Virus record (IMG/VR): IMGVR_UViG_3300033233_000027
Location: 13,685 to 77,684 of that record
Source of the DNA: a virus
DNA length: 64,000 nucleotides
Direction: 5' to 3' (one strand)
Positions 1,562 through 54,445 of this stretch are shown here, piece after piece. Both the position numbers and the translations under genes were made by a program. The notes beneath the pieces were generated by a model, which saw nothing but the letters and a program-made list of their open reading frames with translations, did no database searches and had not been told where the DNA came from. Each line of letters opens with the position of its first letter. Position 1 is the first letter of the stretch.

Positions 1562-1591
1562 TTGACATCGCGTAGCGAGTTAAGATAAAGT
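1562..1591 (+). promoter_or_regulatory. sigma70-type promoter of the replication operon
   Basis: TTGACA(1562-1567)-18 nt-TAAAGT(1586-1591). Confidence 0.6.
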
Positions 1592-1598
1592 TCCGACC

Positions 1599-1714
1599 GT
1601 GCAGCTAAGGAAAATGAATCCGACCACTAGAGCCCGGCGCCTGCCCATCAGCCCGCACTCCTTGCTGCACACAAGATCGCGAGCGGGATGACAGGCGCCG
1701 TCCTCAGGTGGTCG
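1599..1714 (+). ncRNA. structured leader RNA (c4/CI-like architecture)
   Basis: Long hairpin CGACCAC...GTGGTCG with inner GGCGCCTG/CAGGCGCC; apical TCCTTGCTGCAC (1659-1670) is complementary to GTGCAGCTAAGGA (1599-1611). Confidence 0.55.
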
Positions 1715-1733
1715 TTGGTAAGAGGGGTTAACC

Positions 1734-2042
1734 ATGCCGTACAACTGGGGATTCATAAAGGCGTATCCACCACCAGACGACTCTCCACATAGATACCGTT
1801 ACGACTGGACGGACCCTAAGGACTCAGATGCCTGGCCGTGCGCCTACTGTGGAGAACTACAAGGCTCTGGTTGGCCAAGTTTCGATATCGGCTCAGAACG
1901 GATTTGTCGTAACTGTCCATTTCGGATGCTTTTCGAACTGCAAAAAGCAAGCCCGCCTGGATGTGGTCTGGTAGTTCCTAGAGAATTCTCAAGTATCCTC
2001 CGCTCCATTCACCGAGGTACGGCTCGTACGAAGAGGGGCTAG
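1734..2042 (+). CDS. hypothetical Zn-finger protein
   Basis: CxxC...CxxC; AGAGGGG RBS. Confidence 0.5.
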   Translation: MPYNWGFIKAYPPPDDSPHRYRYDWTDPKDSDAWPCAYCGELQGSGWPSFDIGSERICRNCPFRMLFELQKASPPGCGLVVPREFSSILRSIHRGTARTKRG

Positions 2043-2075
2043 TAACGTAAGCGTAAGGCGAGAGAGGGGTCGGTC

Positions 2076-2885
2076 GTGGAGGGATGGATAAAGCTCTGGC
2101 GCAAAATAAGAGAGAACGAGATCTGGGCGTTCAAGCCATGGTCATTTGGGCAGGCTTGGGCAGAGATGGTTATGTGCGCCAAGTTTTCTGATTGCGCTAT
2201 CACGTTCCAAGGCAACGTGTTCGATATAAAAAGAGGTCAACTGGTAACTACACTTCGCCAGCTTTCTAGGGACTTTGGGTGGGGGGATCACAGGGTAAAG
2301 AGGTACATCGAACTACTCAAAAAACGACGCATGATCGACGCACATAACGACGCAGGCTGTATAATTGTAACTATATGCAGATACGATACTTACCAAGGCT
2401 CAGACTCAGACTCGACGCACCAGTATGTTCAAAGTCGACGCACTGACGACGCACTGACGACGCACGACATAAGAAGGGAAGAAGGAGAAGAAGAGAAGAA
2501 GGGAGAAGAGGCGCACGAAACACGTATAGGCGCCAGTGAGTCAAACCCGCCGAACGGAGCTCATCCTACCTCCCCAGATTTTATCGACTCTCTAAAGAAG
2601 GCAATCCCTGGGTCATCGCCTGAAGAAGAGGTCGAACGGCAGCTATTCCAGTTGGCTAAGCGGACGTGCGTTTGCCCAGCCAAGGACGATACCATTCGGA
2701 GAACGATCCGTGCCCTACGGAAACGTGAGGATGTTGGTACTGCTAGACTGCAACAGTATCTGATGTCTAGGGAATCGGTCGGTCGTCATACGAATGACTG
2801 GTTAGACCACTTCAAGCCACAGAAGAATTTAAGCAACGGAGATATCCAGCATGAGCGAGCGCCAAAGATTGACAAGCGTTACTGA
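2076..2885 (+). CDS. phage replication initiator (replisome organiser, lambda O/DnaD-like N-terminus)
   Basis: N-terminal GWIKLWRKI...IKRGQLVTTLRQLSRDFGW...IVTICRYDTYQ winged-helix pattern; internal iterons; directly upstream of DnaB. Confidence 0.8.
   Translation: MEGWIKLWRKIRENEIWAFKPWSFGQAWAEMVMCAKFSDCAITFQGNVFDIKRGQLVTTLRQLSRDFGWGDHRVKRYIELLKKRRMIDAHNDAGCIIVTICRYDTYQGSDSDSTHQYVQSRRTDDALTTHDIRREEGEEEKKGEEAHETRIGASESNPPNGAHPTSPDFIDSLKKAIPGSSPEEEVERQLFQLAKRTCVCPAKDDTIRRTIRALRKREDVGTARLQQYLMSRESVGRHTNDWLDHFKPQKNLSNGDIQHERAPKIDKRY
2325..2511. repeat. iteron array / probable replication origin within the initiator gene
   Basis: CGACGCA x7 at 2325, 2336, 2348, 2413, 2436, 2447, 2458 (mostly 11-12 nt spacing), followed by a purine-only tract ~2471-2511. 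Confidence 0.65.
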
Positions 2886-4173
2886 TTCTCCTTGGATCGA
2901 CGCAGAGCTTGGTGTCATTGGAAGCCTTCTGGTCTGGCCAGAAAACCTAGCTGAAGTTGCTGTAATCCTACGGCCAGATGATTTCCTGCATCCACAGTGC
3001 AAGGCATTATTCGAAGCGATGTTGGATACGGATCTAGTTGTTAAGAACGGAAATAAAGAAGAAATCTACGCAACCCGAGTGTGGAATAGGCTATTCGAAA
3101 AAGGTAGAGGAGATTTTGTTGCTAAAGCGTTCATCGCACAATTGATGCAAGACTCCGTACACTCCACCACCGCAGTAGATTATTGTCAGGTCATAATCCG
3201 ATGGGGAAGAGCCAGAGCTATGCGCGAGGTGTTTCAGAAAGCCTCTTCTGAAATCGAGATGGCGGCAGAACTTTCTGACGAGTCTCTGGCGGCTTGGGAA
3301 TCAAAGATACACGAATACGCCGCCAACCGACTCTCACGTACCCCACTTGAGGCTAACGCACTCATGAGGAAGTTGGGTGAGATCCTTGACTCCCCTGCTC
3401 CGGAGGCTTCCATCACTACTGGACTATTGGACTTAGACCGTGACAGTGATCTGTTTGAGCCAGGCGCGTTCACGGTCATTGCTGGGCGTCCGTCCATGGG
3501 GAAGTCAACGCTCATGCGGAATCTGGTTCACCACATTTCTCCGAACTACAGCACATTGGTCTTCAGCCTAGAAGAATCCAAGGAGATGTTTAGTACGAAG
3601 CTCGCCTGTTCCCTTGCGAAGCTTCCGTACAAAAAAGTTTCAAGGCGGGAACTGTCTGAGATCGATAGGCAGCGGGTTCTCCTTGCGATGGGCATGGTCA
3701 GTGAATACAAGCTTCGAACATCGGACGACTGCCTTTCAACCCGAGAGATCATTGGTGCCATCAAGATGCTCCGCGCAAAGAGCCAGCCTCCTCGAGTAGT
3801 CTTAATCGATCATTTCCAGGCAATGCATCACGAGCGCACCAAGGGCGAAAACGATGTTTCAATGTATACCAGGACGGTTCATAAACTGGCTAGGGCTGCG
3901 GTCGAAAATAACTGCGCTATAGTTCTATTCTGCCAGCTGAATCGTAACTGCGAATACCGGACGGAGCCGCGCCCATATCTCAGCGACCTCCGTGATACGG
4001 GTGCGCTTGAGCAGGCTGCGTGGAATGCCTTATTCATCTGGGCTGAGGATAGGAAAGAGCCGCACCGTTACATCTACGTGGCGAAGCAGCGCAACGGTCC
4101 TACGTTTGAGGTAAAACTATACTTCGATGGAGAGTACGGGTTATTTGGAAATTCTGTTAAGGAGGGGTTATGA
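2851..4173 (+). CDS. dnaB: replicative DNA helicase, DnaB family
   Basis: Walker A IAGRPSMGKS, FSLEES, VLIDHFQ, QLNR...RPYLSDLRDTGALEQAA, VAKQRNGP. Confidence 0.95.
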   Translation: MSERQRLTSVTDSPWIDAELGVIGSLLVWPENLAEVAVILRPDDFLHPQCKALFEAMLDTDLVVKNGNKEEIYATRVWNRLFEKGRGDFVAKAFIAQLMQDSVHSTTAVDYCQVIIRWGRARAMREVFQKASSEIEMAAELSDESLAAWESKIHEYAANRLSRTPLEANALMRKLGEILDSPAPEASITTGLLDLDRDSDLFEPGAFTVIAGRPSMGKSTLMRNLVHHISPNYSTLVFSLEESKEMFSTKLACSLAKLPYKKVSRRELSEIDRQRVLLAMGMVSEYKLRTSDDCLSTREIIGAIKMLRAKSQPPRVVLIDHFQAMHHERTKGENDVSMYTRTVHKLARAAVENNCAIVLFCQLNRNCEYRTEPRPYLSDLRDTGALEQAAWNALFIWAEDRKEPHRYIYVAKQRNGPTFEVKLYFDGEYGLFGNSVKEGL

Positions 4174-4385
4174 CCAAGGAACATCACTTGAAAGTCCTGC
4201 GCTCCATTCTGAAAGAAACAACCGACATGGAGAAAAGGCGTTCCTTGAACACCGCTCTGCTCGCGGTGGATATTTACTATCTTGTTCAAGCAGCACGTAT
4301 GCAGGAAAAACTGGATGCTTCACAAAAAAAGGATGGACAATGTCACGCGCAAAAGATGAAAAAGAATTCGGTGGATCTGAATTGA
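4170..4385 (+). CDS. hypothetical protein
   Basis: ATGA-coupled to dnaB; AAGGAGG RBS. Confidence 0.5.
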   Translation: MTKEHHLKVLRSILKETTDMEKRRSLNTALLAVDIYYLVQAARMQEKLDASQKKDGQCHAQKMKKNSVDLN

Positions 4386-4873
4386 AAAATGAGTTGGATG
4401 CCACACTGGATAGGGCGACGGCACTTGCGAAGCAACTGGAGGATGCGAAGCGGACTCTTGAGATTGAGAGATCAAGGGCCCATGGGATGATTACGGCGAT
4501 GAACAAGGAGGTTCAGAGATGGAAATCCAGAAAGAGCAGCTCAGGTGAGGAGTGGCGTTCCGCTCACGGATCCGTAAAGCTTGAGAACGGAACCCTGCGT
4601 GATGCGCTTGCGAATGCTGAGGCCCAGTTGGCTGCGGCAAAGTCTGAACTGGCGCAAACCAAGGACGCCCTGTCCAAGGCCTCGCACACGGAGAACGCAA
4701 TGCGGTCGACGCTTGATATCCTTGAGAGAAGATCGAAGAGCGCAGAGACAGAAGCTGCGAAGGTTAGGCAACAGGAAGAGGCTAGGAAGGCTAGAGCGAC
4801 GGAAAAGCTGGAGCGCAAGGCTGATCCAGTTGGCGATGCGAGGCCGGTTACGAAAGATGTTGCGCGAAATTAG
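4340..4873 (+). CDS. coiled-coil hypothetical protein
   Basis: A/E/K-rich heptads; start set at MSRAKDEKE with AAGGA RBS. Confidence 0.6.
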   Translation: MSRAKDEKEFGGSELKNELDATLDRATALAKQLEDAKRTLEIERSRAHGMITAMNKEVQRWKSRKSSSGEEWRSAHGSVKLENGTLRDALANAEAQLAAAKSELAQTKDALSKASHTENAMRSTLDILERRSKSAETEAAKVRQQEEARKARATEKLERKADPVGDARPVTKDVARN

Positions 4874-5148
4874 GATTAAACGCAGTGCTAAAGAAAACGA
4901 GACCGAAGCGTGCTGTGTCCAAGGCAAAGCGGATCGCCCCAGACATAAATGCTTTTGTTGGGAAGCTAAATCTTGAACAGCGCATGGTTCTGATATCTGG
5001 CATACTTACCGTATTCAAGATACTCACTGGGCCCGCACTCATTTCTGAATGGCTGAATGGGGCACCCACGATCAACACGAAAGTCGCTGGGCCGTGGAGA
5101 GGGAAGGGATCTTTCGGAAAAGGTTTTGGGCCTCAAGGGAGAAGGTAG

Positions 5149-5697
5149 ATGGCATCACTGCATGGTGGTTCCGTATGGTGGTATGCGTTCTGGACGGTAG
5201 CTGCATTCGTTGGATCAATTCCGTGGCTTTCCTGTGCGGAATATCTGGTTCACCGTTTCCTGATGCACAGGAAGTTTGTTCCAAAGTTCGCGTGGGAACT
5301 CCACAGCCAACACCACAAGATTTTCGGATCCGACTATACGTATCACGCACTCGACGATGAGATGGCGCGGCACATCACGTTCGATCCTCGGGACTACATC
5401 CTCCTGACCCTAGCGAATCTTCCGATATATTGTGCCGTTGAATTCCTGATCCATCGGCCCATTGTGGTCGGGTGCGTTCTGGCCACACTCGCCTATCTGC
5501 ACAGTTTCCAAGTCTTGCATCTAGCCTGGCATAGCCCCGCAGATCGTTTCTACGAAGAGCATCGGTGGTTTCTCTGGATGAAGGAGCGCCATCGTCTTCA
5601 TCACGCAGATACGTCGAGCCGGTACAACCTGATCGTTCCGATTGTGGACGGTACGCTGATTGCTATCAAGGCACTTCGCAGCAAGAAGTCTGCGTAG
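5149..5697 (+). CDS. fatty acid hydroxylase / sterol desaturase family membrane protein
   Basis: Four His boxes HRFLMH, HSQHH, HLAWH, HRLHH and hydrophobic segments. Confidence 0.85.
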   Translation: MASLHGGSVWWYAFWTVAAFVGSIPWLSCAEYLVHRFLMHRKFVPKFAWELHSQHHKIFGSDYTYHALDDEMARHITFDPRDYILLTLANLPIYCAVEFLIHRPIVVGCVLATLAYLHSFQVLHLAWHSPADRFYEEHRWFLWMKERHRLHHADTSSRYNLIVPIVDGTLIAIKALRSKKSA

Positions 5698-6072
5698 AAC
5701 AGATCGTAGGATATCTCAGAGGCATGATGAAGACAGCGCGAGAAAATGAATGCCCGAATTGCGTCCCGCATAGGATGCACTATGATGGATGTATGGGGGC
5801 CGTGTTTGAAAATGGAGAGATCACCGTCTGCGCATGTAAGCGACCTGAATGCGTGAAGCAACAGAGGGCGTCGGTTAGAGGGATTAAAATCTCCGTAGGT
5901 AAATCAAAACAGCGTACTTCAAACCAATCATGAACCACAAATTCAAGCGTCCGAGGACGCAACGTGCAGGCTGTAAAATGTGCAAGGCTTGGAAGTCTAG
6001 TCGTCAGGCTGCGCATCGGTTACGCGACAAGAGGCAGGACGAACCGAGAGATGAACACCTTTCATACAAATC

Positions 6073-6261
6073 GTGAATGACCAAGAGGGGAACTTTCCAC
6101 TCATCTGGTTCTGGAATCCTCAGCCATTCCCAGGTAGAACCGTGAACCGGAAAGGACAGAGATGTAGAGTGCTGGCGAGAGGAGCGAAGAACAATGTGCT
6201 GGTGGAGTTTGTTGACGGTTTTAGAGTATGCGCAAGTAGATATGCCGTAAGAAAAGCGTGA
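6073..6261 (+). CDS. small hypothetical phage protein
   Basis: RKGQRCRVLARGAKNNVLVEFVDG, SH3-like beta pattern. Confidence 0.5.
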   Translation: MNDQEGNFPLIWFWNPQPFPGRTVNRKGQRCRVLARGAKNNVLVEFVDGFRVCASRYAVRKA

Positions 6262-6457
6262 AGCAGATGAAGAAAGATCAGATATGGATTAGAATTCCTC
6301 TGAGAGAACGCCGCGAGCGGATCATGTGGATGAAGGCGTGCCTCAGGGTATGGCGGGGGGCGACCAAGAAGAGAGATCATGGACTTGCCCATTTCGCATC
6401 GAACGTAGCCTTTGGTTGCGGTTTGCTCAAGGTCAGTTGAGGGAGGATAAGCCGCGC

Positions 6458-6703
6458 ATGATAAAGACTGTTTTCTTGTTCGCAAACGGAAACGTAGCCT
6501 GCTGCGATGAACATGGCCAGCAAGTTCCAGAAGAGAACAACTCTGCGTGGTTTCATGTACTCCAGGATAAGCTGGATCGAGGGGTGATTTCTGAGGATAC
6601 AGAACTGTATATGGCTGGCTGGGAATCCAGAGATGGGAAGAAGTCCATGACCGTCTTTGATCTTATGGTGCGAGGAAATCTTGAGAAAAAGGAGAATGGA
6701 TGA
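6458..6703 (+). CDS. hypothetical protein
   Basis: GGGAGG RBS before ATG 6458; coupled to 6700..6945. Confidence 0.55.
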   Translation: MIKTVFLFANGNVACCDEHGQQVPEENNSAWFHVLQDKLDRGVISEDTELYMAGWESRDGKKSMTVFDLMVRGNLEKKENG

Positions 6704-6945
6704 ATCCGCTCGCGCAATCTAGGGGCAACGAAAAGAAGATGGGAGCAGAGGAGTTCATGGGGAAAAGGCTGGCTAGGCTAGTGGTCCACTCTTCCATCGA
6801 TGATGATGGCTACCCCACGTCCAACATCGTTGGTGGAATATGCTGGAACTGCTGGAAGACGGCACGAGAAATTATGGATTGCAAGATGGGAGATGTCTGC
6901 AACGAGTCCAATAAGAAGTGGGCAGCTATGGGGAATACCCAGTAG
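6700..6945 (+). CDS. hypothetical protein
   Basis: AAGGAG RBS, ATGA overlap. Confidence 0.5.
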   Translation: MNPLAQSRGNEKKMGAEEFMGKRLARLVVHSSIDDDGYPTSNIVGGICWNCWKTAREIMDCKMGDVCNESNKKWAAMGNTQ

Positions 6946-7263
6946 CCTCTAGGCAAGCATTCCCTTGCGTCAACCCCGTGGTACTGGTGTACGATGCGTT
7001 GCCACTGCACATTTCTAATGAATTGTGCAGTGACTGCATAGAAGAACTGAAATGTGCAGTGTACTTGCCTGTGGCCTAGCCTATACCCCGGTGCCACGCA
7101 TCGGACGCGGAGCTCGCCAGTTTGAATCTGTCTATGCCAACTCCTTTCTCAGTTTCCAGTCTGGACAGGACCGTCCGTTCTCGGTATAACTTCCGAAAAT
7201 CTGGTAGATCAGGAGTCAGCCACCTGCAATAGGAACAGCTTCTCTTTTGAAGAACTGAATTTT

Positions 7264-7518
7264 ATGCCAAGCCGAACATTTGAAATCGTAGTCGAGGCCG
7301 TGTACCCAGGGATGTCTTCCATCATCATTTCTGTGAACGGAAGAAGGCATCTCATGCCATCCGCGCTCTTGCCGGCCACGCAGGAATGGTTCAACGAGAT
7401 GACTGGCCGACCACTGGTCTTCTCCATTTCTGCGGAGGAACAGCGTAGCACGACCGAGAGAACCATTGAGGGTGCTGGATCCTCTTCATCCAACGAAGTC
7501 ACCGTGAGCGCAACATGA
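7264..7518 (+). CDS. hypothetical protein
   Basis: 84-aa ORF in the operon direction. Confidence 0.45.
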   Translation: MPSRTFEIVVEAVYPGMSSIIISVNGRRHLMPSALLPATQEWFNEMTGRPLVFSISAEEQRSTTERTIEGAGSSSSNEVTVSAT

Positions 7519-7697
7519 AGACTGCGAAATGCGAGAAAACTGGCGACAGGGAATACTGGTCAAGTATAGCCGTAGGTGCGGCAGAAGTACGATCTCAGGC
7601 TTTTGCGAACTCCGTGAAATTTTCTTTGTGGCTGAACAAGTCGAGGGAGAGACGTAAGCCAACGAAGAAATAGCTTTGGCGAATCGGAGCGGGAGGG

Positions 7698-8399: not shown

Positions 8400-8431
8400 T
8401 TCTCGCCTACTATTGTGTGTCCGTTTTTATA

Positions 8432-8461
8432 TTGACAATACCTCTCCATGGGCGTAGAAAT
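8432..8461 (+). promoter_or_regulatory. candidate promoter of the virion operon
   Basis: TTGACA(8432-8437)-17 nt-TAGAAA (imperfect -10), AT-rich upstream. Confidence 0.4.
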
Positions 8462-8551
8462 GACACATCGGAACCACTGGCTCCTCCCCGGGCCGACCGA
8501 TCTAGTCCGACCTGCGAGCCAGCCCTTGCGAGAGAGAAACGAGAGGGCTGG

Positions 8552-11969: not shown

Positions 11970-12004
11970 CCTATCCAAGGCCTATTTTTTTTGGAGAAGA
12001 CACG

Positions 12005-12709: not shown

Positions 12710-12713
12710 TAAA

Positions 12714-13628: not shown

Positions 13629-13660
13629 CGTCTTCAGGGCGACCAGAAGGAACGTATTAC

Positions 13661-36074: not shown

Positions 36075-36614
36075 CTATCGAAGAGCGGGGTCCAGTAAAA
36101 CACGAAACGTAAGCCCCTTCTTCGCTCTGTAGATAGTCGCGATAGACACCCCGTACCGCTTCGCGAGAGCCGCGTCAGACTCCGAACTCCTGCGGATCTT
36201 CTTGACGTCATCCACCTTCAGCTTCGCCGTGAAATACCCGTGCCATCGAATCGAATCGTGCAGATTGTCCCTTTGCCGCTGCACTTGCAGGTGATCCGGG
36301 TTCACGCAGAGCGGCACATCGCAGCGATGCGCCAAGACCATGCTCTTTCCTTTCGGCAACTCTCGGCCAGCGATGATCCAACTGACCTGAGAGGCGTAGA
36401 GCGGTTTGTGACCAGGCCAAGAAGCCTGAGCGCGTTTCGTTACCGGATTCACGAACCCGACCCACATCCAACAGCCGTCAGGACGCTTCTTGACGTACTT
36501 GAAAAAGTTGTAGATCCACCTATCCTTGGTCCCCTGTTTCGGGATGGCACACAGCGAGCATTTGCCGTTCGCCCACTCGTGTTTTTGGCGCCTGACTTCT
36601 CCACACTGAACCAT
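36075..36614 (-). CDS. HNH homing endonuclease with C-terminal HTH
   Basis: CWMW, HRCDVPLCVNPDHL, LAKRYGVSIATI. Confidence 0.85.
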   Translation of the reverse strand: MVQCGEVRRQKHEWANGKCSLCAIPKQGTKDRWIYNFFKYVKKRPDGCWMWVGFVNPVTKRAQASWPGHKPLYASQVSWIIAGRELPKGKSMVLAHRCDVPLCVNPDHLQVQRQRDNLHDSIRWHGYFTAKLKVDDVKKIRRSSESDAALAKRYGVSIATIYRAKKGLTFRVLLDPALR

Positions 36615-40168: not shown

Positions 40169-40432
40169 CTACTTTCTCAGCGGATCTATTCCACCTGGAT
40201 TCTGTCCGCTCATCACTAGATTCCACGCTCGAATGAGTTCAGCGCGATGAAGTTCTGCCCAAGCAAGGACAAGCCGCTCGTCCCTTATTTTCAATTCACC
40301 AGCCAGAAGCTCTAGCGTTTCGAGCGAGTATTTTGCCTCATACTCTCCGTGCTCTGCATGAAAATGAGGAGGAAGATGGTCGTTCCAGTTCATCCTGATA
40401 ATGATTCCGAAGAAGCGGCTTAGGGTCGGCAT
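40169..40432 (-). CDS. DUF4160-like putative toxin
   Basis: MPTLSRFFGIIIRM...DHLPPHFHAEHG...WAELH. Confidence 0.85.
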   Translation of the reverse strand: MPTLSRFFGIIIRMNWNDHLPPHFHAEHGEYEAKYSLETLELLAGELKIRDERLVLAWAELHRAELIRAWNLVMSGQNPGGIDPLRK

Positions 40433-40444: not shown

Positions 40445-40564
40445 AAAAAAGGAGCCCCCTGGCTTACCCACGGTTTTGACATGGCAGGGGGCCCCGCCGA
40501 AGATTTCGTAGAACGTACCGGGAGTAAGCATCCGAAGACTACCCTAGAACTGAGCTAAGGTCAA
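40445..40564 (-). promoter_or_regulatory. promoter plus attenuator-like leader of the TA pair
   Basis: TTGACC(40564-40559)-17-TAGTCT(40541-40536); hairpin GGGGCCCCT...AGGGGGCTCC then TTTTTT; 5' end complementary to the hairpin. Confidence 0.6.
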
Positions 40565-42918: not shown

Positions 42919-43386
42919 TTACGTAGTCACTTTCGGCATTCTCATGCACGGTTTGCAACGCGAATAGCTCGTCGAAGGAGCGGTATATCGATTCTCCAGT
43001 GTCTGCCTGTGCCCGCGCTTGCAATACGGCCTCTTCAGCGAGCGACCGATGTTCTCTTTGTGAGTCACCACCTCCAAGTGCGCCGGGTTCACGCAAGAAT
43101 GCACGCGGCATAGATGGTCAATCTCTTTATCATGCGGGATGTTCTTTCCAGTCGAGAGAGCCCATGAGATTCGATGCGCTCTCCGCTCTCCATTCGTACC
43201 GAATTGACCGTAGCCATTTCTGTAAATCGTCCCGGCCCACAACCAACAAGTGTCGGTCTTGTTGACCTTGCGCCAGAAATTGTATAGGTATCTCGCCTTT
43301 GTTCCGAGCTTAGGAATCTGGCAGACAACGCAACGGCCATGCCTCCACTGGTGATATCTATTTACCTGATGCTTTTGCGCAGCCAC
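42919..43386 (-). CDS. HNH homing endonuclease
   Basis: CWLW...GYG...AHRISW...IDHLCRVHSCVNPAHL...CKRGH. Confidence 0.9.
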   Translation of the reverse strand: MAAQKHQVNRYHQWRHGRCVVCQIPKLGTKARYLYNFWRKVNKTDTCWLWAGTIYRNGYGQFGTNGERRAHRISWALSTGKNIPHDKEIDHLCRVHSCVNPAHLEVVTHKENIGRSLKRPYCKRGHRQTLENRYTAPSTSYSRCKPCMRMPKVTT

Positions 43387-43405
43387 CTATCCTCCATTCA
43401 CGTAG

Positions 43406-43958: not shown

Positions 43959-43970
43959 CTCTTCACCTTC

Positions 43971-44282: not shown

Positions 44283-44288
44283 ACTAAT

Positions 44289-44336
44289 AGTATACGATTA
44301 ACAGGCCGCAGTGTCAACCGAAATCGTATACGATTT
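44289..44336 (-). promoter_or_regulatory. near-consensus sigma70 promoter with adjacent palindromic operator
   Basis: TTGACA(44317-44312)-17-TATACT(44294-44289); perfect palindrome AAATCGTATACGATTT at 44321-44336. Confidence 0.8.
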
Positions 44337-44351
44337 GTCAGATTGTTTCCG

Positions 44352-44528: not shown

Positions 44529-44826
44529 CTCTTAATAGTATACGTTTCTATCGGTCACTTGCACCAAAAAAATCGATGAGCATCATCGCTTCCTGTGGAT
44601 CCGCTCAAATCGCTCAAGATCACGCCCCGAGGCCGTGCGGGCCGTGGATCGGCATGGGCCTATTTCACAGTAGGCGCAGCGTTTTGGAGCCCCATAGGAG
44701 CAGCAATCGCATCTCTTGTAGCCGCAGGGGCCCCGGCCGCAGAGGTGCTTCAGTCGACCGTGACCGCACTTCCTACAAGAATCCGTAGTCTTGGCCACTG
44801 ACTTCACCTTTCAACCATTCTGCGAA

Positions 44827-45138
44827 TCATCCCTTCGGTGCCTTGCCTTTTTTGTTCTTACGCACGAAACGGATTCCCCAGGCCGTCAACTGGTACTTTT
44901 TCGCTGGCCGACCTCCAGTGCTCTTTAGTTCGCCGGCCAGCTTGAGATATCCCCATCTCCGAAACGTAGAGATCCACCCAGCCGCAATAGCAGTCGCGCC
45001 GCTCTTTTCCGTCCGTTCAATCCCAAGAGTATCCGTGAGATCCCTAGCAGTGAACGGAACAGGCTCGTTCTGTACGCCATTGGCACCGACTCTGAGCCAA
45101 TTGGTCCGAATCAGGCCTAGGATCTCGTACCAGTCCAT
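44827..45138 (-). CDS. winged-helix DNA-binding protein
   Basis: FTARDL...WISTFRRWGYL...GGRPAKKYQLT. Confidence 0.7.
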   Translation of the reverse strand: MDWYEILGLIRTNWLRVGANGVQNEPVPFTARDLTDTLGIERTEKSGATAIAAGWISTFRRWGYLKLAGELKSTGGRPAKKYQLTAWGIRFVRKNKKGKAPKG

Positions 45139-45146
45139 ATAACCCC

Positions 45147-45175
45147 ATTATAGCCGCAAAACAGCCTACTATCAA
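45147..45175 (-). promoter_or_regulatory. sigma70 promoter (near-leaderless transcript)
   Basis: TTGATA-17-TATAAT, ending 8 nt before the ATG. Confidence 0.7.
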
Positions 45176-45305
45176 GTATTATACTTAAAAGTATACTCCT
45201 GCACAGAATTGGAATTCTGTGCCGAGATCCTCCCCATGGGCGTCCTTTGGGCTCCGGGGGTGGGGTTTGGGGCCAATGGGGCCTTCCTAGGTAGCCAGAC
45301 CATGG

Positions 45306-46748: not shown

Positions 46749-46752
46749 CTGA

Positions 46753-47541
46753 CTAATCCGGCATTTCGCCAAGTACCTGGTCGACTCTTCCCTTGTTTGT
46801 ATGCGTATACACCTTCGCCATCTCAAGACTAGACCAGCCAAGCCTCGCACGAACGTAATTCCAGTCTGCCCCATGAGCAATCAGTTGGCTCGCGTGGGTA
46901 TGCCTCAGAATGTGAACGAGAGAAGCCCGATCAGGCTTTACTTTGTCCAGGATGGCCTCGAGCTTAGATTGGATCGTCCGCGGAGCCGCCTTGAATATCA
47001 TCTCTTGCGGATTGAGCCTAAGACAAATATGGATGAGTTCTATCATCGCAGCAGACTTGTTCCGAAGGTCTACCCGACGCTTTGGCCTCCCTGCCCTCTT
47101 GAGCGTAGGGATCCTCACGATGGAAAGAGTACCCTTCGTGATGCTAACATCCTCGCGTCTCAGTAGAAGTGCCTCCCGCAGCCGGCATCCCGTAGCCGCG
47201 ATGAACCGAATCGTCGAGCCGATTATTTTGCTGAGGGAGTGCGTCTCACGAAGAACGATCTTGAACTCCTGATCCGTCAGCACTTTTCTAGGATCAATGC
47301 TTCCATCTAGGAACTGTGCCGAAGCACCCTGCTTCCATTGGGACTTGCAGCACTTTTCTGAGCACGGAATCTTGTGCCCGTTATTAGACTCTGGCACACA
47401 TCGATGCGAATGCGGGGTGCAAACCCTAGCTCTGTCGCCCACATTGAATCTGGCCATGTATTCGGAGCCACAGACATGGCATGTCGACACTTGGTTGTAG
47501 TCTGGATCTGTCCCTGCTGGGAGTCGAGACTTACGGCTCAT
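46753..47541 (-). CDS. tyrosine recombinase/integrase with N-terminal Cys-rich domain
   Basis: TGCRLREAL, HILRHTHAS, LGWSS, VYTH. Confidence 0.9.
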   Translation of the reverse strand: MSRKSRLPAGTDPDYNQVSTCHVCGSEYMARFNVGDRARVCTPHSHRCVPESNNGHKIPCSEKCCKSQWKQGASAQFLDGSIDPRKVLTDQEFKIVLRETHSLSKIIGSTIRFIAATGCRLREALLLRREDVSITKGTLSIVRIPTLKRAGRPKRRVDLRNKSAAMIELIHICLRLNPQEMIFKAAPRTIQSKLEAILDKVKPDRASLVHILRHTHASQLIAHGADWNYVRARLGWSSLEMAKVYTHTNKGRVDQVLGEMPD

Positions 47542-47852
47542 TGCTTCCTACCCGGCTCCCACATTATCGAACGGCTTGCGGCTATGATCCTGATGGCGAG
47601 CCACTCTGGATCCGTATGACCATCTTCGGCCGCAATCGTCTCGACCATGTTCTCTGCCTCGTCTTGCTCGATCGCGTACTGGCGAGTCTGCGAGTAGATC
47701 CGAAGGATCTTGTCGAACGCCTCTCTCGAAACGACGCCATGAAGATTGATCGCCCTTCCCCGTTCCCCATTGGGATCCTTGATCTCGCCCTGCCATTGTC
47801 GGGTGATGCGGTAGTGAGCCAGCACCGTTGGACGCTGGCAGGACGAGGCCAA
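47538..47852 (-). CDS. hypothetical protein
   Basis: Coupled to the integrase start. Confidence 0.45.
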   Translation of the reverse strand: MASSCQRPTVLAHYRITRQWQGEIKDPNGERGRAINLHGVVSREAFDKILRIYSQTRQYAIEQDEAENMVETIAAEDGHTDPEWLAIRIIAASRSIMWEPGRKQ

Positions 47853-48190
47853 GAATCCCGTGGTCTGGCTGGCTCACTGCGGGGGAGTGTATCTGGATGT
47901 GCCTGAGCCGTCAAGTGGGCTGCACAGAATGGCCCAAACGTGAACTTCAGAAGGCTCGCCCTCTAGCCACTCTTTTTAGCCCATTCCATCGGAAATGGCC
48001 GCACTCTCCAGCTCGAGCGGAGCGGGCATCATCCCACCGTCTAGCGAGCTCTAGGTCGGCTGGACGCTCCCAGGAACGCCAGCAGGGAATGCAGTACCAC
48101 ACATTCGACTCCTGCGGCCTCCTGAGGCCTTCCCAGCCACAGCAAGGGCACAACACCTCTCCTCCGTGTCGCTAATCTCACCTTTCATGA

Positions 48191-48604
48191 CTACGGCTCA
48201 TTGCTCATCAGGTAACTATTGTAGGAATCGTTGATGTCTTCAGTCCCGCCACATTGTTCCCGCAGTAGAAAGTACGTATCAGTCCACTCCTTTGATGCGC
48301 TTGCGGTCAGCCTCAATGGACCAGCAGCGTTGATGTCGCAATGGTGAATCGCACAGATAGGCCTTAGATGCGCTGGGGCGGTGCATCGGTTATCTGGACC
48401 CATGAGAGGAAACTCTGGATGCCCCGTGGTTGGAAGAGTTACGCCACGCTTCTTTGCGAACGCCAATGCCATCTTGCAGTATTGGCGCTCGCAGCATCTG
48501 TACGTACTTGGGTGCTTACACAGTTGGTCGCAGGCCGACCGTGTATGTTCCGCAATCCTCTCGTAGGCTTCGGCCTTTCCTCCAAATTCCTCTGAGTTTT
48601 TCAT
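48191..48604 (-). CDS. Cys-rich hypothetical protein
   Basis: CC...C...CTAPAHLRPICAIHHC. Confidence 0.55.
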   Translation of the reverse strand: MKNSEEFGGKAEAYERIAEHTRSACDQLCKHPSTYRCCERQYCKMALAFAKKRGVTLPTTGHPEFPLMGPDNRCTAPAHLRPICAIHHCDINAAGPLRLTASASKEWTDTYFLLREQCGGTEDINDSYNSYLMSNEP

Positions 48605-48620
48605 CGCATCGCATCACAAA

Positions 48621-49493
48621 CTAGATGAAGTCGTGGGTAAGGACAGCCGTAAGGTTGGAATCAACCAGGGACGAACTTTCAAGGAACATACTCACCAGAT
48701 CAGTGTCAACAACTGGAACGATATCAGCAAACGAAAATACCCCCGTGGTTGCGGCTGGAATTGCCAGGCTAGCTTGAGTAACGCCATTAACCCTAACACG
48801 AATTGTCCCAGAGACTGTCGCCGTGTTTATTGCTACGAAGGCACGGAAGTTTTTCAGGTTTCCAGCCCGATTGGTAGGCCATTGGAACTTGGATTCAACC
48901 AGATCTCCGCTGGCGCCGGTTACTCCAGTGACCGTAGTTAAGTAGCTGTTTGTCGTGGTCACAGGGAATGGAGGCTTCGTGCCGATATTGACCGTGGTGG
49001 CCCCGCTATAGATGACAGGACCGTCGCCACCGCCTGTAGTTCCAGGTCCCTGTACGCCCTGAATTCCCTGCGCTCCTTGGGATCCCTGTGTGCCTTGGGC
49101 ACCTTGGCTTCCTTGGGCTCCTTGTGGACCAAGATCACCCTGGGCACCTTGCGGGCCAAGATCCCCCTGAGCGCCCTGAGATCCTTCTGGCCCTTGCGTT
49201 CCCTGTGGCCCAAGATCGCCTTGTGCGCCTTGCGGACCAAGATCTCCCTGATTGCCTTGTGATCCTTCGGGTCCTTGTATCCCCTGCGGTCCAAAATCGC
49301 CTTGTGCGCCTTGCGGACCAAGATCTCCCTGATTGCCTTGTGATCCTTCGGGTCCTTGTACTCCTTGTGGACCTCCAGACGGGCCTTGGTTGCCTTGATT
49401 GCCTGAAATACCTGGAGTACCTTGCGCACCGCGGCCACCACCGCCGATCCTGAAGCCGCCACCGCCTACAGGAATTGGAAAACCAGGGCCCAT
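48621..49493 (-). CDS. collagen-like fibre protein A
   Basis: About 40 G-X-Y (mostly G-X-Q) triplets plus C-terminal beta head. Confidence 0.9.
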
Positions 49494-49597
49494 AAATCCT
49501 CCCCGCCTCTCTTAATAACCAGGCTAAAATTCTAAATTATTTCTGCCGAACTCCAACTAGGTCACCTCTCTCGCCTTTCGTTATCTACCTAAAGTGC

Positions 49598-50458
49598 TCA
49601 ACTCGGAATGAACCTAGAAGACATCTGAATACTTGTCACGCTCCCCGCCCCAGCAGCCGTCGCATCCATGACAAAGCTGAATTTGTCGTTAGCCGAGACA
49701 GCAATATCCGTGGTGATAGACAGGTCGCCGTCTGTCCCTGCGGGATACGTCACGGTCAAGGCCGTCGCCACGCCGTTCAAGAAGACAGTAACGACAAAAT
49801 CGCCGCTTAACGTGTTGTCGCCAGCTACGATAGAGACAAGGAGATCCTTGAGCGTGCCCATTGGGAGAGGGATTCGGTAACGTGAATATGGAAAGGTTTG
49901 GAGACCAAAACCGCCATCAAAAAGTGTCCCCTCTACTACTGAACCTGAACTGATAGTTGATACTACGGCAAGAAGCGGAATGATCCCGCCGCCACCGCCT
50001 GTAGTGCCAGGTCCCTGTACGCCCTGAATTCCCTGCGCTCCTTGGGATCCCTGTGCGCCTTGGGCACCTTGGCTCCCTTGGGCTCCTTGCGGACCAAGAT
50101 CACCCTGAGCACCTTGCGGGCCAAGATCCCCCTGAGCGCCCTGAGATCCTTCTGGCCCTTGCGTTCCCTGTGGCCCAAGATCGCCTTGTGCGCCTTGCGG
50201 ACCAAGATCTCCCTGATTGCCTTGTGACCCTTCCGGTCCTTGTATCCCCTGCGGTCCAAGATCGCCTTGTGCGCCTTGTGGACCAAGATCTCCCTGATTG
50301 CCTTGTGATCCTTCGGGTCCTTGTACTCCTTGTGGACCTCCAGACGGGCCTTGGTTGCCTTGATTGCCTGAAATACCTGGAGTACCTTGCGCCCCGCGGC
50401 CACCACCGCCGATCCTGAAGCCGCCACCGCCTACAGGAATTGGAAAACCAGGTCGCAT
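49598..50458 (-). CDS. collagen-like fibre protein B
   Basis: N-terminus and collagen nearly identical to protein A; different head. Confidence 0.9.
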
Positions 50459-50964
50459 AAATCCTCCCCTTCTCCCTTAATGCTCTATTTCAGATGCCAA
50501 GGTCGTATGGTAGTCTAGGATTCTCTTTCTCTTTGAACAGATTGTACTGCCATAACCAGAACAGATATAGCTAATCCGATAGGCCAGAGAATCACCCCAA
50601 TGGCCACAGCCACTGTCCACCAGCTTTCCATTCCAGCGCGTTCTAGTTTATCAGATGTATGCTGGGCAAAGTGGGAGCGTATATTGTGCGCGATCCAAAG
50701 GAACCCCGCCATCAGGTAGATTGATCCGCAGAATATCCAGCTGACCGATTCCTGAATAGACTTCACTCCCATTGCTCAACAATCCTATGCTGGACTACTC
50801 GAGGCAGTTCCATCCATTGACTCTTCTCAAGTGGCCACTCCATTTGTACTCCAGAGAGCGCGATAAGATTGGTTCTCTGCGTCTCAGTGAGTCTCGGCCA
50901 TGCATTCGCGCATTCCTTCTCGCGGGCCCGGAATTCGTCGAACTCCATCAATGTCGTCTTTCTG

Positions 50965-51372
50965 TCATTGCGCGATATTCGGATCCGATAGTTTGGACTC
51001 ATCCACCTTCTTGGCAGTTCCGAGCAGCTTGAGCCCAGGATGGGCCATTACGAACGCGAACGGGACAGTGGCATCCATCCGCTCTACCCTAGCATCTGGA
51101 AGATGATATGGGAGGCGTACCGTATTGGCTAGTCTCTCTGCCTCTTCTTTTGTTCCGAACGTGTAGAGCGTTGATTCAAGGATGACGAAGCAGTTTCTGG
51201 ACATGACCACGAATACTTCTGCTCCAGCTGGCGGCAACGCATAGACACGGTTGGCACTCTTGGGTCCATTCTTGACCACTTCCTCAAAGCAAAGGAGGCA
51301 CATCCACCCGAGATTGGTGACGGCGCATTGCCCGAACAGTCCGCACTCTCCGCAGAGCCCATCATCAGCCAT
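50965..51372 (-). CDS. hypothetical protein
   Basis: CxxC...CxxC N-terminus. Confidence 0.5.
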   Translation of the reverse strand: MADDGLCGECGLFGQCAVTNLGWMCLLCFEEVVKNGPKSANRVYALPPAGAEVFVVMSRNCFVILESTLYTFGTKEEAERLANTVRLPYHLPDARVERMDATVPFAFVMAHPGLKLLGTAKKVDESKLSDPNIAQ

Positions 51373-51397
51373 GATCTACCTTTCATGCCTTTCAGGA

Positions 51398-51772
51398 TCA
51401 ATCGAAGATATGCGATTCGTTCCAGCCGTTGCGCCAGCAGATCTCTTTGTAGGTCTTCAAGGATAGCGGGAAGCTGGAAATTCCAACGCCCATGAATATC
51501 CGTATCATGGCTTTGAAGGTTCCGTCGACAGACTCTTTAGGGGTATCCGCTTTCCCGAATTCTTCGAAGACCAGAGACATCGCCCAGTCTGCGTATCTCT
51601 TTCCGCATTCATCGCATTTCTCTCTTCCAAATATCCCCTTGAGCGAGTCGACCTTGTCCTGGAATTCCTTGAATACAAGCCCGAACTCCCTGATACCAGA
51701 AGCCATGGCTTCTTTACAGTTTGAGCAGTGTCCATCTTCATCTTGGTCGCAGTGGCACGGACCAGAACCCAT
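51398..51772 (-). CDS. hypothetical protein
   Basis: 124-aa ORF with RBS. Confidence 0.5.
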   Translation of the reverse strand: MGSGPCHCDQDEDGHCSNCKEAMASGIREFGLVFKEFQDKVDSLKGIFGREKCDECGKRYADWAMSLVFEEFGKADTPKESVDGTFKAMIRIFMGVGISSFPLSLKTYKEICWRNGWNESHIFD

Positions 51773-51815
51773 TGATTTCCCCTTTCCCTAAATCACGAAT
51801 CACTTCAAAGGCTTG

Positions 51816-52511
51816 TTAATCTCCACTCGGCCACTTCCGGTTGTATATATCCATGGATGCGCGGGAAAGCGCCGCTATGTCAGGTCTGGTTCGGTAAGTG
51901 GATGTGCAGTTTCTCTCATGCCGAACAACGCAGGTCTCATCTATCCAGAGATCCCACCCTTGCAGCGTTGCTCGCCGGCACCAATCTGAATCATCATAGC
52001 CATATCCAGTAAAGCGTTCATCCAGTAGACCGATCGAAGAAATAGCTCTACGTGGGAGATAGACGCAGACGAAGCAGAGCATTCCGAATTCTTGCCTCAA
52101 CGCATTTGGGGAGTGGAGTCTCTGGTTCGGATTCCCGACTATGCCATCTATTACTGGAGATATCGCAGCTATGTTCGGTCGTTGAGACCACCGTTCATGG
52201 AGTTTGCTGAATCCGCCTATAGTTGCGAGTTCTGCATCGTCGTTCATGAGTACGACATCGTCTTTTCCGCATGCGGCGATACCGAGGTTCGCGTTGCGGG
52301 CAAAGATGAATGGTTTCTTGCCCTCGACCCAGCGAACTGGAAGATCACCACAACTGGCTCGCGCTCCGTCATCTACTACTACGATACGATCCGGTGTCAG
52401 ACCTGGTTCGTTGGCGATTAGAGACCGAATGCATCCACGTAGATTCGTTGTCTTGGCAGATAAGATGACGACACTCCAACGAGTCACGCCTTCATCTCCA
52501 CCGATCTGCAT
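51816..52511 (-). CDS. glycosyltransferase family 2
   Basis: VVVDDG, FARNANLG, MNDD, LDERFTGYGYDDSDWC. Confidence 0.9.
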   Translation of the reverse strand: MQIGGDEGVTRWSVVILSAKTTNLRGCIRSLIANEPGLTPDRIVVVDDGARASCGDLPVRWVEGKKPFIFARNANLGIAACGKDDVVLMNDDAELATIGGFSKLHERWSQRPNIAAISPVIDGIVGNPNQRLHSPNALRQEFGMLCFVCVYLPRRAISSIGLLDERFTGYGYDDSDWCRRATLQGWDLWIDETCVVRHERNCTSTYRTRPDIAALSRASMDIYNRKWPSGD

Positions 52512-52792
52512 CAGCGGTCTTTCGTTTCCATCTGGCCTTCCGTACTGCGTTCCAAACTATTCCGATCAATACCCCAGCAACCATACCAACGGATGGTGCC
52601 CACCAAAGTTCTCTCACTGCCTGCGCTGGAAGGCAGCCGATGACGGCAAAGAGGATGCCGCAGATAATTGGTCTGGTTGGATCGCAAATGTCGACTGATC
52701 CGCACTTTGGACAATCTCCCATTCTCCCCATAACACTTCCCAACATGAAGTCTACATCTTCAGATGCGAATGGAGCAAGTGTCGCGGAGGGG

Positions 52793-53056
52793 CTATCCGA
52801 TGACGATTGGGGGTTTCTGTGGAGGAGCAGACTTCAGCCAGTACCTGAACCTACCCTTTCCCTCTCGCCGGCATTCTATATCGTATCCAGAGGCCCTGAG
52901 TTCCGATACCACAGTGCTGGCAGAGCAGATCCTAGCCTTCTCCATCAGTTCCCAGGTAGTGGCCCCAGACAAGCCAGCCTCGTATAAGGCGTAGAGCAGC
53001 CTCTTCAGCCTATCAGAAGTGTCGGGGTTCGCCTTGTGCATTCCATTCTTGGCCAT
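52793..53056 (-). CDS. winged-HTH protein
   Basis: ATTWEL...STVVSELRASGYDI...YWL; GGAGG RBS. Confidence 0.7.
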   Translation of the reverse strand: MAKNGMHKANPDTSDRLKRLLYALYEAGLSGATTWELMEKARICSASTVVSELRASGYDIECRREGKGRFRYWLKSAPPQKPPIVIG

Positions 53057-53072
53057 CCATCCTCCGTTTACA

Positions 53073-53231
53073 CCCTAGGCGCAATGGACCGATCGAATCC
53101 CGACCGCCGCACCTGGCTTGAGAGATGAGGCCCACAGCGGGCGCGGAATATACGGTCGGGATTGAATCGGTCGGAAAGTACCTAGGGGCCTCATCTGCGG
53201 AAAGTATGCTGTGGAGGAGATGCGCTGTCAA
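53073..53231 (-). promoter_or_regulatory. promoter plus long-hairpin leader RNA
   Basis: TTGACA-17-CATACT; 5' AGATGAGGCCC complementary to apical GGGCCTCATCT; stem AATCCCGACCG/CGGTCGGGATT. Confidence 0.65.
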
Positions 53232-53293
53232 GTACGAAGCGGATTACATTTGCATGAATGCCTTGTTTCACGCCTACGTAATCCAACAAGTCC

Positions 53294-53382
53294 CGTGAGC
53301 CGTGGCGACACTGGAGGGATATGTCCCGCGCTGGTGAGGCGCGGTAGTCGGATGCGTGTCGCCACGGGTCAAGAAACTCACG
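53294..53382 (-). ncRNA. structured RNA motif, copy A
   Basis: CCGTGGCGACA/TGTCGCCACGG stem with inner CCGCGC/GCGCGG hairpin; homologous to 54305-54392. Confidence 0.55.
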
Positions 53383-53392
53383 TAGATCTTAA

Positions 53393-53466
53393 TCAGCCCG
53401 GCCAGATTCGAACTGGCGACCTTCTCGTCCCAAGCGAGACGCTCTACCTAGCTGAGCCACGGGCTG
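53393..53466 (-). tRNA. tRNA-Pro (UGG)
   Basis: CAGCCCG/CGGGCTG acceptor, TCTCG-CTTGGGA-CGAGA anticodon arm, TTCGAAT T-loop; no CCA. Confidence 0.92.
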
Positions 53467-53700
53467 GCATCAATCCAAGCTCCTACGACTGCGGGAAGTC
53501 CCGAAGGAATATCCCGCGTTCGTATTTACAGTAAACGAAAACGATCTCTGCCATTTTCTTCCTAGAGAGCGCCCAGATGGGCAGAAATCCCTCGTCTTTC
53601 AGCCAACTCTCAATGTGCGCCTTCTCGCGGAGCTCGCTATCTGATGGAGGGGGAGCGGGAATGTGTCCAGTCATCTTTCCTCTATTTTGCGACAGTACGA

Positions 53701-54294
53701 CTACGGATAACTGGATGAGTCTCGGTTCTCGCTGGACCGTTCCCTCTCGTAGTCGGTTCGGTCCATGAGGTTCATGAAGTCATCCAAGGCGTACTTGCCG
53801 CCAAGGAATCGATAGACAAGGTTCTGTGCCTTCTTCCGATCTACAAGCCTCGGTTGATTCAGCAGCCATTGCAGATCAAGAATATGCTTCGGTTCGCGAG
53901 CAGCCAGTTTCATCGTAGCTAGGTGCTCGGGGCTTACGATCTGGATTCCATCGGAGGTCGTTGACGTATTCTCCAGAGCATGATCGTACAAGTCCTTGTA
54001 CTCATCATTCCGAACGATAAAGTCCACCTTGGCTCCATCGGCTGCTATGAAGGCTTCACCCCCGAAATTGATCGGTCCAAGTCTGGTGAGTCCTAGTTCT
54101 GGTACGCCCGCAACTACGAAGTCTACATCCTTCGTCAATCTGGGCGAACCGAATGCCTGCATAGCAACCCCGCCAGCAAGTGCCGCAACTGATCCTGTTG
54201 ATTCTGACCATTCACGGACTGTACGGAGTATAGAGTTGATCTGCTCTGTCGTGATGAATCTCTCTTTTGGAACCATTGCGTATACTCCGTTCAT
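53701..54294 (-). CDS. Pol-beta-superfamily nucleotidyltransferase (AbiEii/MenT-like)
   Basis: LAGGVAM...PRLTKDVDF...KVDF...LATMKL.A.EPKH..DL; AAGGAG RBS. Confidence 0.8.
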   Translation of the reverse strand: MNGVYAMVPKERFITTEQINSILRTVREWSESTGSVAALAGGVAMQAFGSPRLTKDVDFVVAGVPELGLTRLGPINFGGEAFIAADGAKVDFIVRNDEYKDLYDHALENTSTTSDGIQIVSPEHLATMKLAAREPKHILDLQWLLNQPRLVDRKKAQNLVYRFLGGKYALDDFMNLMDRTDYERERSSENRDSSSYP

Positions 54295-54304
54295 ACGGGC
54301 TCCT

Positions 54305-54445
54305 TGATCCATGGCGACATCATGGTGACATGGTCTGCGTTGCTGAGGCGCAGCAGTCGGTGAGATGTCGCCACGGGTCGAGAAACTCATCAGTTCACTA
54401 CGCCTCAGCTACTGGAGCCTACCCCGTTTGCGATACTCAGGTCAA
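54305..54445 (-). ncRNA. promoter plus structured RNA motif, copy B (leader of the nucleotidyltransferase)
   Basis: TTGACC-18-TAGGCT; 5' GCTGAGGCGTAG complementary to apical CTGCGCCTCAGC. Confidence 0.6.

Follow-up and report, generated by a model that had tools for sequence, protein, structure and literature searches.

Five leaders in a stretch of viral DNA share one layout, in which the transcript is predicted to begin with a segment that complements the apex of a long hairpin located between the promoter and the first ribosome-binding site. The stretch (hereafter the window) covers 64,000 nt, bases 13685-77684 of the 77,684-bp IMG/VR virus record IMGVR_UViG_3300033233_000027, which has 120-bp terminal repeats and ~53% G+C. 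The repeated layout exceeds chance. We tentatively favor the explanation that, as predicted foldings suggest, the five leaders are cis-acting, co-transcriptional two-state RNA switches, with the 5′ segment serving as an anti-hairpin. The support for a function consists of sequence statistics and thermodynamic folding; the sense RNA as the active molecule, the transcript starts, and every output are inferred.

Anatomy and statistics of the five leaders

The original prediction, made from the sequence alone, had described four promoters of the TTGAC type, each followed at 7-8 nt past the -10 box by a seed complementary to the apex or arm of a downstream hairpin. All four seed/target pairs were found again, and the distance of 7-8 nt holds at each of them. 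At sites 1, 3, and 4, the target is located toward the apex of a long hairpin, and at site 2 it falls within the loop of a terminator-like hairpin. The geometry is indeed repeated with differing seed sequences, and the count rises from four to five, because testing the remaining consensus promoters revealed site 5, which had been overlooked. In the following list, A is the 5′ seed, A′ its complement, and B and B′ are the hairpin arms. Transcript starts are those predicted from the promoters.

1562-1591, plus strand: site 1 promoter, TTGACA-18-TAAAGT
1599-1611, plus strand: site 1 segment A, 5′ seed GTGCAGCTAAGGA (p = 0.0007 against random 16-mers)
1621-1714, plus strand: site 1 long hairpin with 36-nt arms (B 1621-1656, B′ 1679-1714, apex A′ 1659-1670)
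40536-40564, minus strand: site 2 promoter, TTGACC-17-TAGTCT
40517-40529, minus strand: site 2 segment A, 5′ seed GCTTACTCCCGGT
40445-40495, minus strand: site 2 terminator-like hairpin (B 40495-40485, A′ 40474-40462, B′ 40461-40451, U6 tract 40450-40445)
53203-53231, minus strand: site 3 promoter, TTGACA-17-CATACT
53186-53196, minus strand: site 3 segment A, 5′ seed AGATGAGGCCC
53087-53172, minus strand: site 3 long hairpin with 20-nt arms (B 53172-53153, B′ 53106-53087, A′ 53133-53123, loop CCUCAUCU)
54416-54445, minus strand: site 4 promoter, TTGACC-18-TAGGCT
54398-54412, minus strand: site 4 segment A, 5′ seed GTAGCTGAGGCGTAG
54303-54382, minus strand: site 4 long hairpin with 19-nt arms (B 54382-54364, B′ 54321-54303, A′ 54353-54339, loop CCUCAGCAA)
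47886-47914, minus strand: site 5 promoter, TTGACG-17-TACACT
47866-47880, minus strand: site 5 segment A, 5′ seed with the core AGTGAGCCAGC at 47878-47868
47772-47859, minus strand: site 5 long hairpin with 24-bp arms (B 47859-47836, B′ 47795-47772, A′ 47825-47811, loop CUCACUA)

The order of the elements is the same at all five sites, with A at the 5′ end, followed by B, A′ at the apex, and B′. Segment A measures 11-15 nt, its pairing begins 0-3 nt from the predicted +1, and the starts of A and A′ are 55-63 nt apart. The long stems, of 19-36 bp with internal mismatches, are found 0-20 nt ahead of the start codon, and where the start codon is clear, B:B′ ends 0-20 nt ahead of the ribosome-binding site. 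Seed and target form 12 pairs with one bulged A at site 1 (GTGCAGCTAAGGA with TCCTTGCTGCAC), 11 Watson-Crick pairs with one G-U pair and one mismatch at site 2 (40529-40517 with 40474-40462), and 11 perfect pairs out of 11 at site 3 (53196-53186 with 53133-53123). At site 4, the 11 Watson-Crick pairs and one G-U pair (54409-54398 with 54353-54342) are extendable to 15 nt, and at site 5 the core pairs perfectly with 47823-47813. The five leader sequences are unrelated, except for a paralogue of the site 4 hairpin and for two motifs common to sites 3, 4, and 5, namely UGAG(G/C)C at +3/+4 of the seeds and G(C/G)CUCA in the loops.

The genes behind these leaders are diverse. The site 1 hairpin stops 19 nt ahead of the ATG at 1734, which opens an operon of a 102-aa ORF, a DnaD-like gene, and DnaB. 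Site 2 precedes a DhiT/DhiA-like (DUF4160/DUF2442) pair, which resembles a toxin-antitoxin system and starts at 40432. Site 3 precedes a winged-HTH gene starting at 53056, and the base of the site 4 stem pairs the AAGGAG Shine-Dalgarno sequence of a weakly AbiEii-like nucleotidyltransferase gene starting at 54294. The site 5 hairpin, with a minimum free energy of -55.1 kcal/mol (z -5.76), lies ahead of or overlaps a xis-like ORF, upstream of the integrase gene (46753-47541). Two codons could start this ORF, TTG 47852 and an in-frame GTG located at the 5′ edge of A′ or several nt ahead of it; they fall inside the B arm or beside A′.

The energies of the seed-to-downstream duplexes belong to the top 0.03-2.6% among all genome positions. 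The joint score, combining seed:target with the flanking arm:arm pairing, was reached at sites 1, 3, 4, and 5 by none of 6000 random positions, and at site 2 by a fraction of 0.007 of them. For the seed against the apex alone, p was <= 0.002 per site, and the Fisher combined value was ~1e-11, as bounded by the number of permutations. Compared with shuffled sequences, the hairpins folded better, with z values from -2.2 to -5.8.

In the 77.7-kb genome, 142 relaxed promoter-like sites were recognized, and five of them passed for the layout on the sense strand, exactly the five described here. Among 160 other phage or metagenome loci, only three of 466 promoter-like sites passed. These were 2 of the 179 sites from 80 unrelated IMG/VR loci and 1 of the 272 from 72 metagenome loci; none of the 15 from eight distant relatives passed. 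The layout is present at five of the six strongest TTGAC promoters. A strict search pattern, TTGACN-N16-18-TANNNT, has only five occurrences genome-wide. Three of them are sites 1, 2, and 4, and the other two are site 5 and a promoter at 44317-44289; site 3 has a CATACT -10 box. A promoter-free scan for interleaved helices proved too permissive, with 360 matches on one strand.

Predicted competing folds and rival explanations

In the mechanism that we tentatively propose, the transcript would open with segment A, and its complement A′ would follow ~55-63 nt on, at the tip of hairpin B:B′, which would end at or just ahead of the ribosome-binding site. The polymerase reaches A′ ahead of B′, and for this reason the nascent RNA would first fold as a 5′-terminal A:A′ stem-loop. 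Upon emergence of B′, the longer B:B′ hairpin would compete with A:A′, and the two helices would be largely mutually exclusive, as they interleave and the linkers are short. Segment A would act as an anti-hairpin, at the DhiTA-like operon as an antiterminator against an intrinsic terminator, and at the other four sites by delaying or blocking the long hairpin. At these four sites, the fold could influence how stable the mRNA is (via a paired 5′ end or a substrate for RNase III), whether a 5′-end start codon is accessible, or whether the apical loop is exposed.

Folding calculations are consistent with such a succession. When the RNA is cut just past A′, A:A′ is the minimum-energy fold at all five sites, and in partition functions of the growing transcript, 11-13 A:A′ pairs are present at lengths of 70-95 nt. 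A:A′ gives way abruptly to B:B′ at sites 1, 3, and 5 when roughly half of B′ has been made. At sites 2 and 4, by these calculations, the helices alternate, which indicates a near-isoenergetic, bistable state. Enforcing A:A′ costs the full leaders 12-21 kcal/mol at sites 1, 3, and 5, and about 2-5 kcal/mol at site 4; at site 2, A:A′ lies within ~2 kcal/mol either way, depending on transcript length. The linkers L1/L2/L3 measure, for the sites in the order listed, 9/2/8, 21/10/0, 13/19/16, 15/10/17, and 6/10/14 nt. L1 thus spans 6-21 nt, compared with B stems of 11-36 bp. Judged from this geometry, a complete pseudoknot appears unlikely, above all at sites 1, 2, and 5.

Site 2 offers the clearest case. 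Its B:B′ is an 11-bp G+C stem (GGGGCCCCCUG / CAGGGGGCUCC) followed by U6, 19 nt ahead of the ATG, and has the features of a terminator, which a simple scanner missed because the loop is 23 nt long. In the minimum-energy fold of the full leader (-38.3 kcal/mol) A:A′ is present and the terminator is dissolved, so that the leader has a mutually exclusive antiterminator fold, and the ensemble alternates with transcript length. As L3 is 0 nt, A:A′ and B:B′ should not be able to coexist. B:B′ is therefore predicted to be an intrinsic terminator and A:A′ its antiterminator, and this is the only site with a readable output, because the accessibility predicted for the translation start at sites 1-4 does not change between the states. 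Regarding a sensor for this attenuator, the leader matched no cis-regulatory family of Rfam at threshold; the one weak match, to PhotoRC-I, scored 19.9 bits against a gathering score of 45.

Several observations weigh against a two-state switch. Since the hairpin state is 12-21 kcal/mol stabler at sites 1, 3, and 5, A:A′ may last there for less than a second. Programs for nested folds cannot score pseudoknots and forbid crossing helices, and the exclusion of one helix by the other is for this reason partly built into the folds; the linker lengths are the one argument by which A:A′ and B:B′ would exclude each other. At sites 1-4, the Shine-Dalgarno sequence and the start codon are predicted to be equally accessible in both states, and G-U counts give the sense strand no preference. 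A signal that would set the switch was not identified. The original prediction had proposed covariation in related genomes as a check; homologous leaders were found neither in INPHARED, searched with megablast and tblastn, nor in IMG/VR, GTDB, or metagenome contigs, and no covariation from relatives came to light. A further variant of that prediction, with pairing to the non-template strand of the open promoter, has nothing in its favor.

Given the equal predicted accessibility in both states at sites 1-4, we rejected the idea that hiding the Shine-Dalgarno sequence is the output common to the leaders. The equal accessibility would suit static elements, which influence mRNA stability or processing without any switching. 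The hairpin would then be cut by RNase III or hold up 5′ exonucleases, as in the T7 R sites, the lambda N leader, or the SP82 5′ stabilizers, and pairing of the 5′ end would shield the triphosphate, as in 5′-terminal stem-loops of the ompA type. Such elements are known to stabilize mRNA. The long mismatched stems close to the start codons and the pairing that starts almost at the predicted +1 point in the same direction. However, a 5′ stem that is meant to persist would not have its partner inside a far stabler, competing hairpin, and both the site 2 terminator and the constant partner at the apex would be left unexplained. We consider static elements quite improbable.

Start codons occur within segment A itself at four sites, as GUG (site 1), AUG (site 2), AUG at +3 (site 3), and GUG at +2 (site 5). 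The switch could accordingly be coupled to translation from the 5′ end, if A:A′ hides this codon and a loaded ribosome melts B:B′ or, at site 2, prevents the terminator. An RTG is found 5-9 nt past the -10 box at six of seven strong promoters (1599, 40531, 53194, 47877, 44282, and 45138), compared with ~16% expected for each, and this count includes a clearly leaderless 103-aa gene at 45138. In addition, the AUG of site 2 is in frame with DhiT, and the frame is open through the terminator. Yet the pattern was spotted post hoc, site 4 has no such codon, and the short ORFs of sites 1, 3, and 5, which are Arg-rich and without homologues, do not look like coding sequences. Coupling of this kind also presupposes a host capable of leaderless translation, and altogether it seems very unlikely to us. 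At sites 1-3, the 5′-end start codon shares the frame of the downstream gene, with a stop intervening at sites 1 and 3.

The paralogue of the site 4 hairpin, which we call hpA, is an orphan.

53293-53380, minus strand: orphan paralogue of the site 4 hairpin (hpA), 74% identical, without a seed of its own

It starts ~10 nt past tRNA-Pro (53466-53393), and could be released by tRNA processing. Aligned with the site 4 hairpin, it differs by two compensatory double changes and by one G-C to G-U change in the stems. These compensatory changes, the sole covariation available, support the view that the hairpin is under selection, its small apical stem included. The two 88-nt copies (53293-53380 and 54302-54389, minus strand) flank a module of nucleotidyltransferase, small ORF, and tRNA-Pro as direct repeats. 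They could represent a cassette boundary or a duplication scar as well as an RNA element.

A scar of this kind would fit a role at the DNA level, in which the repeats are protein sites, cruciforms, or recombination scars. Such a role, or a chance origin, would also fit the G-U counts, in which the sense strand has no advantage, and the site 1 and site 4 hairpins, which fold more stably as antisense. Against this, one DNA-binding protein cannot read five unrelated sequences, the constant placement with respect to +1 and to the ribosome-binding site speaks for the transcript, and chance is excluded statistically. We judge a DNA-level role or chance most improbable, and argue for the sense RNA because of the promoter orientation together with this fixed position.

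The hairpins could also act in trans, as the original prediction had proposed with P4 CI and P1 c4 as precedents, and as IS10 RNA-OUT does. A stable B:B′, perhaps excised by RNase III, E, or P, would accumulate, and its apical loop would pair with the 5′ ends of new transcripts from the same promoter. Pairing in cis would be blocked, termination or decay would be favored, and the five leaders would form five orthogonal negative-feedback loops. Several features fit this reading. In the hairpin state, the center of each target lies in an apical loop of 7-9 nt, and four of the six loops start with CUCA, a motif of the YUNR type. YUNR motifs are linked to fast antisense pairing. Because pairing in cis is sterically hindered in the hairpin state, both partners would stay free, and between the site 4 seed and the orphan hairpin next to tRNA-Pro, which lacks its own seed, 8 pairs are possible. 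The leaders precede genes (replication, xis/int, a toxin-antitoxin pair, and a nucleotidyltransferase) of the kind that needs tight dosage control. Moreover, in phage P4 the CI RNA pairs with seqA, a site that precedes the CI gene within one and the same leader (PMC4825925).

On the other side, the match to the Rfam C4 family that the original prediction had suggested looking for did not appear. At E <= 10, the leaders gave only sub-threshold noise, with no C4 and no cis-regulatory or other family. No second, downstream copy of a seed (>= 9 nt) was found near any site, and additional matches of the apices across the genome, the potential trans targets, were at chance level. The cis partner would emerge ~55 nt past the seed and would outcompete a trans partner, unless the latter were very abundant. 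We consider action in trans rather unlikely. Its fullest form would be five feedback regulators made of RNA alone and orthogonal to one another, in which the hairpin loop captures the 5′ ends of the next transcripts and flips the leader to the terminated or destabilized hairpin state, with the orphan hairpin as a sixth regulator acting on the nucleotidyltransferase operon; this we regard as unlikely.

The virus, its switch region and its relatives

One strong promoter provides a contrast to the five leaders, as it has neither a seed nor a hairpin.

44283-44338, minus strand: contrast promoter, TTGACA-17-TATACT (44317-44289), with two flanking ATCGTATAC(G/T)AT palindromes

Being bracketed by a pair of palindromes, it looks like an operator-controlled switch promoter. 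Together with 45139-45215 (minus strand), it looks like the central switch region. There, the near-consensus promoter TTGATA-17-TATAAT (45175-45147) overlaps a AGTATACTT/AAGTATAAT inverted repeat and drives the 103-aa ORF, the mRNA of which is effectively leaderless because its ATG (45138) lies 9 nt past the -10 box. This is a property shared with many phage repressor genes.

Two leaders have further matches or folds. The reverse complement of the site 1 hairpin (1620-1716) folds more stably than the sense strand (-62 vs -50 kcal/mol, 5 G-U pairs) and is followed by AUUCAUUUU. An antisense promoter was not found at this hairpin, and a countertranscript of the replication leader is only a possibility. 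The apex of site 3 (CUCAUCUCUC; 53112-53146, minus strand) is complementary, with 10-nt matches, to GAGAGAUGAG, which represents codons 3-6 of several genes with a MAxEMxW N-terminal tag (54536, 55061, 55471, 55807, 56177, and four sites before the window). Targeting of these genes was rejected, as the duplex energies are unexceptional (p 0.05-0.34). The matches are probably a by-product of a shared AGATGAG.

The virus is an uncultured temperate phage from sediment. The sole sequencing run containing this DNA is a sediment metagenome, which is probably its source, and contigs of the run match the leaders identically. Its genes include an integrase, a C5 methylase, a DnaD-like loader, a DnaB helicase, three tRNAs, and large glycosyltransferase and collagen-repeat genes. 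No close relative was found in INPHARED, IMG/VR, GTDB genomes, or JGI metagenomes. IMG/VR, searched by helicase, DNA pattern, and helicase alignment, yielded no homologous leader, the best match being 32% identical. In GTDB genomes, searches by helicase and hairpin pattern detected no leader homologue; the pattern gave three chance matches within coding regions. No helicase relative above 41% identity was present among 1.84 billion representatives, and the DnaD-like protein has one relative with 72% identity, on a 1.3-kb Logan contig.

The search was also led through the 1386-aa glycosyltransferase, and the metagenome contigs reached by it (43-61% aa identity) contained neither a leader homologue nor such an architecture. 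This protein (56536-60696, minus strand) has four GT2 glycosyltransferase stretches and a methyltransferase domain. Its relatives are found on contigs from sediment and other metagenomes, and some of them adjoin similar collagen-like repeat genes. The accessory region has two genes resembling HNH homing endonucleases (42919-43386 and 36075-36614, minus strand), one of them directly 3′ of tRNA-Ile; a Pfam search of this region revealed no RNA-binding or RNase gene.

Comparison with known systems

At gathering score, the whole window matched only three tRNAs in Rfam. Self-cleaving ribozymes with interleaved helices (HDV-like, twister, pistol) had no match at E <= 10 in the leader regions searched, and literature searches for a described equivalent returned nothing specific.

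Nearest in logic, along with attenuators, hok mRNA, and IS10, are P4 CI with seqA/seqC and P1/P7 c4 (Rfam C4, RF01695; relatives N15 CA and Gifsy-1 IsrK), which share with our leaders a promoter-proximal leader hairpin exposing a segment that is complementary to an upstream stretch of the same transcript (PMC4825925). As in P4 and P1, the phage is temperate, and one of the sites precedes replication genes. There are also differences. The leaders do not match the C4 covariance model. C4 RNAs have both upstream and downstream targets (seqA and seqC; a1b1 and a2b2), whereas only the upstream seed is present here. They are stable RNAs of ~70-80 nt, processed from the leader and acting in trans; for our hairpins, processing and trans action are possibilities. 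Furthermore, the complement is here the extreme 5′ end of the transcript, and five unrelated copies per genome stand against one immunity locus.

Terminator/antiterminator attenuators and riboswitch platforms also make a co-transcriptional choice between helices, and at site 2 the 5′ segment would prevent a G+C stem followed by a U tract in the same manner. In contrast to attenuators, four of our five sites have no terminator, and the competitor pairs with the loop of the hairpin and not with an arm, so that the competition would be topological rather than for the same bases. Aptamers, leader-peptide logic, T-boxes, and protein-binding motifs were not recognized.

In hok/sok-type toxin loci, hok mRNA has tac/fbi elements and metastable 5′ hairpins, its 5′ end pairs with a distant element, and the transient fold differs from the final one. 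The distant partner is 3′-terminal, and 3′ trimming together with the antisense Sok RNA triggers the switch. Distant pairing of the 5′ end and a transient fold distinct from the final one would be common to both systems, and two of our sites precede toxin-like genes. A partner at the 3′ end, 3′ trimming, and a Sok-type antisense RNA are not seen in our leaders. In IS10, the 5′ terminus of the mRNA (RNA-IN) pairs with the apical loop of the stable hairpin RNA-OUT, which is transcribed from the opposite strand. In our leaders, a single transcript from one strand contains both partners. The T7 R sites, the lambda N leader, and SP82 resemble our leaders by a long imperfect hairpin between an early promoter and the first ribosome-binding site, but they lack a 5′-terminal segment complementary to the hairpin apex.

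In our reading, the five leaders represent a real leader RNA switch outside the known Rfam families, notable for its five sequence-unrelated copies in one genome. If functional, they would show one small phage genome arriving at five independent solutions to one RNA design problem, with differing sequences and a single topology, and would provide something close to a natural mutational series for how a 5′ segment can gate a downstream hairpin during transcription. They would also imply that dosage-critical genes (replication initiation, xis/int, the DhiTA-like toxin pair, the nucleotidyltransferase) can be controlled at leader RNAs and not at operators; the only operators seen in this genome belong to the central switch promoters. 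The five seed/apex pairs, which should not cross-react, could serve as orthogonal regulatory parts. Should feedback in trans prove true, the leaders would be a natural counterpart of synthetic orthogonal riboregulators, and would generalize the RNA immunity of P4 and P1 to replication, integration, and toxin genes.

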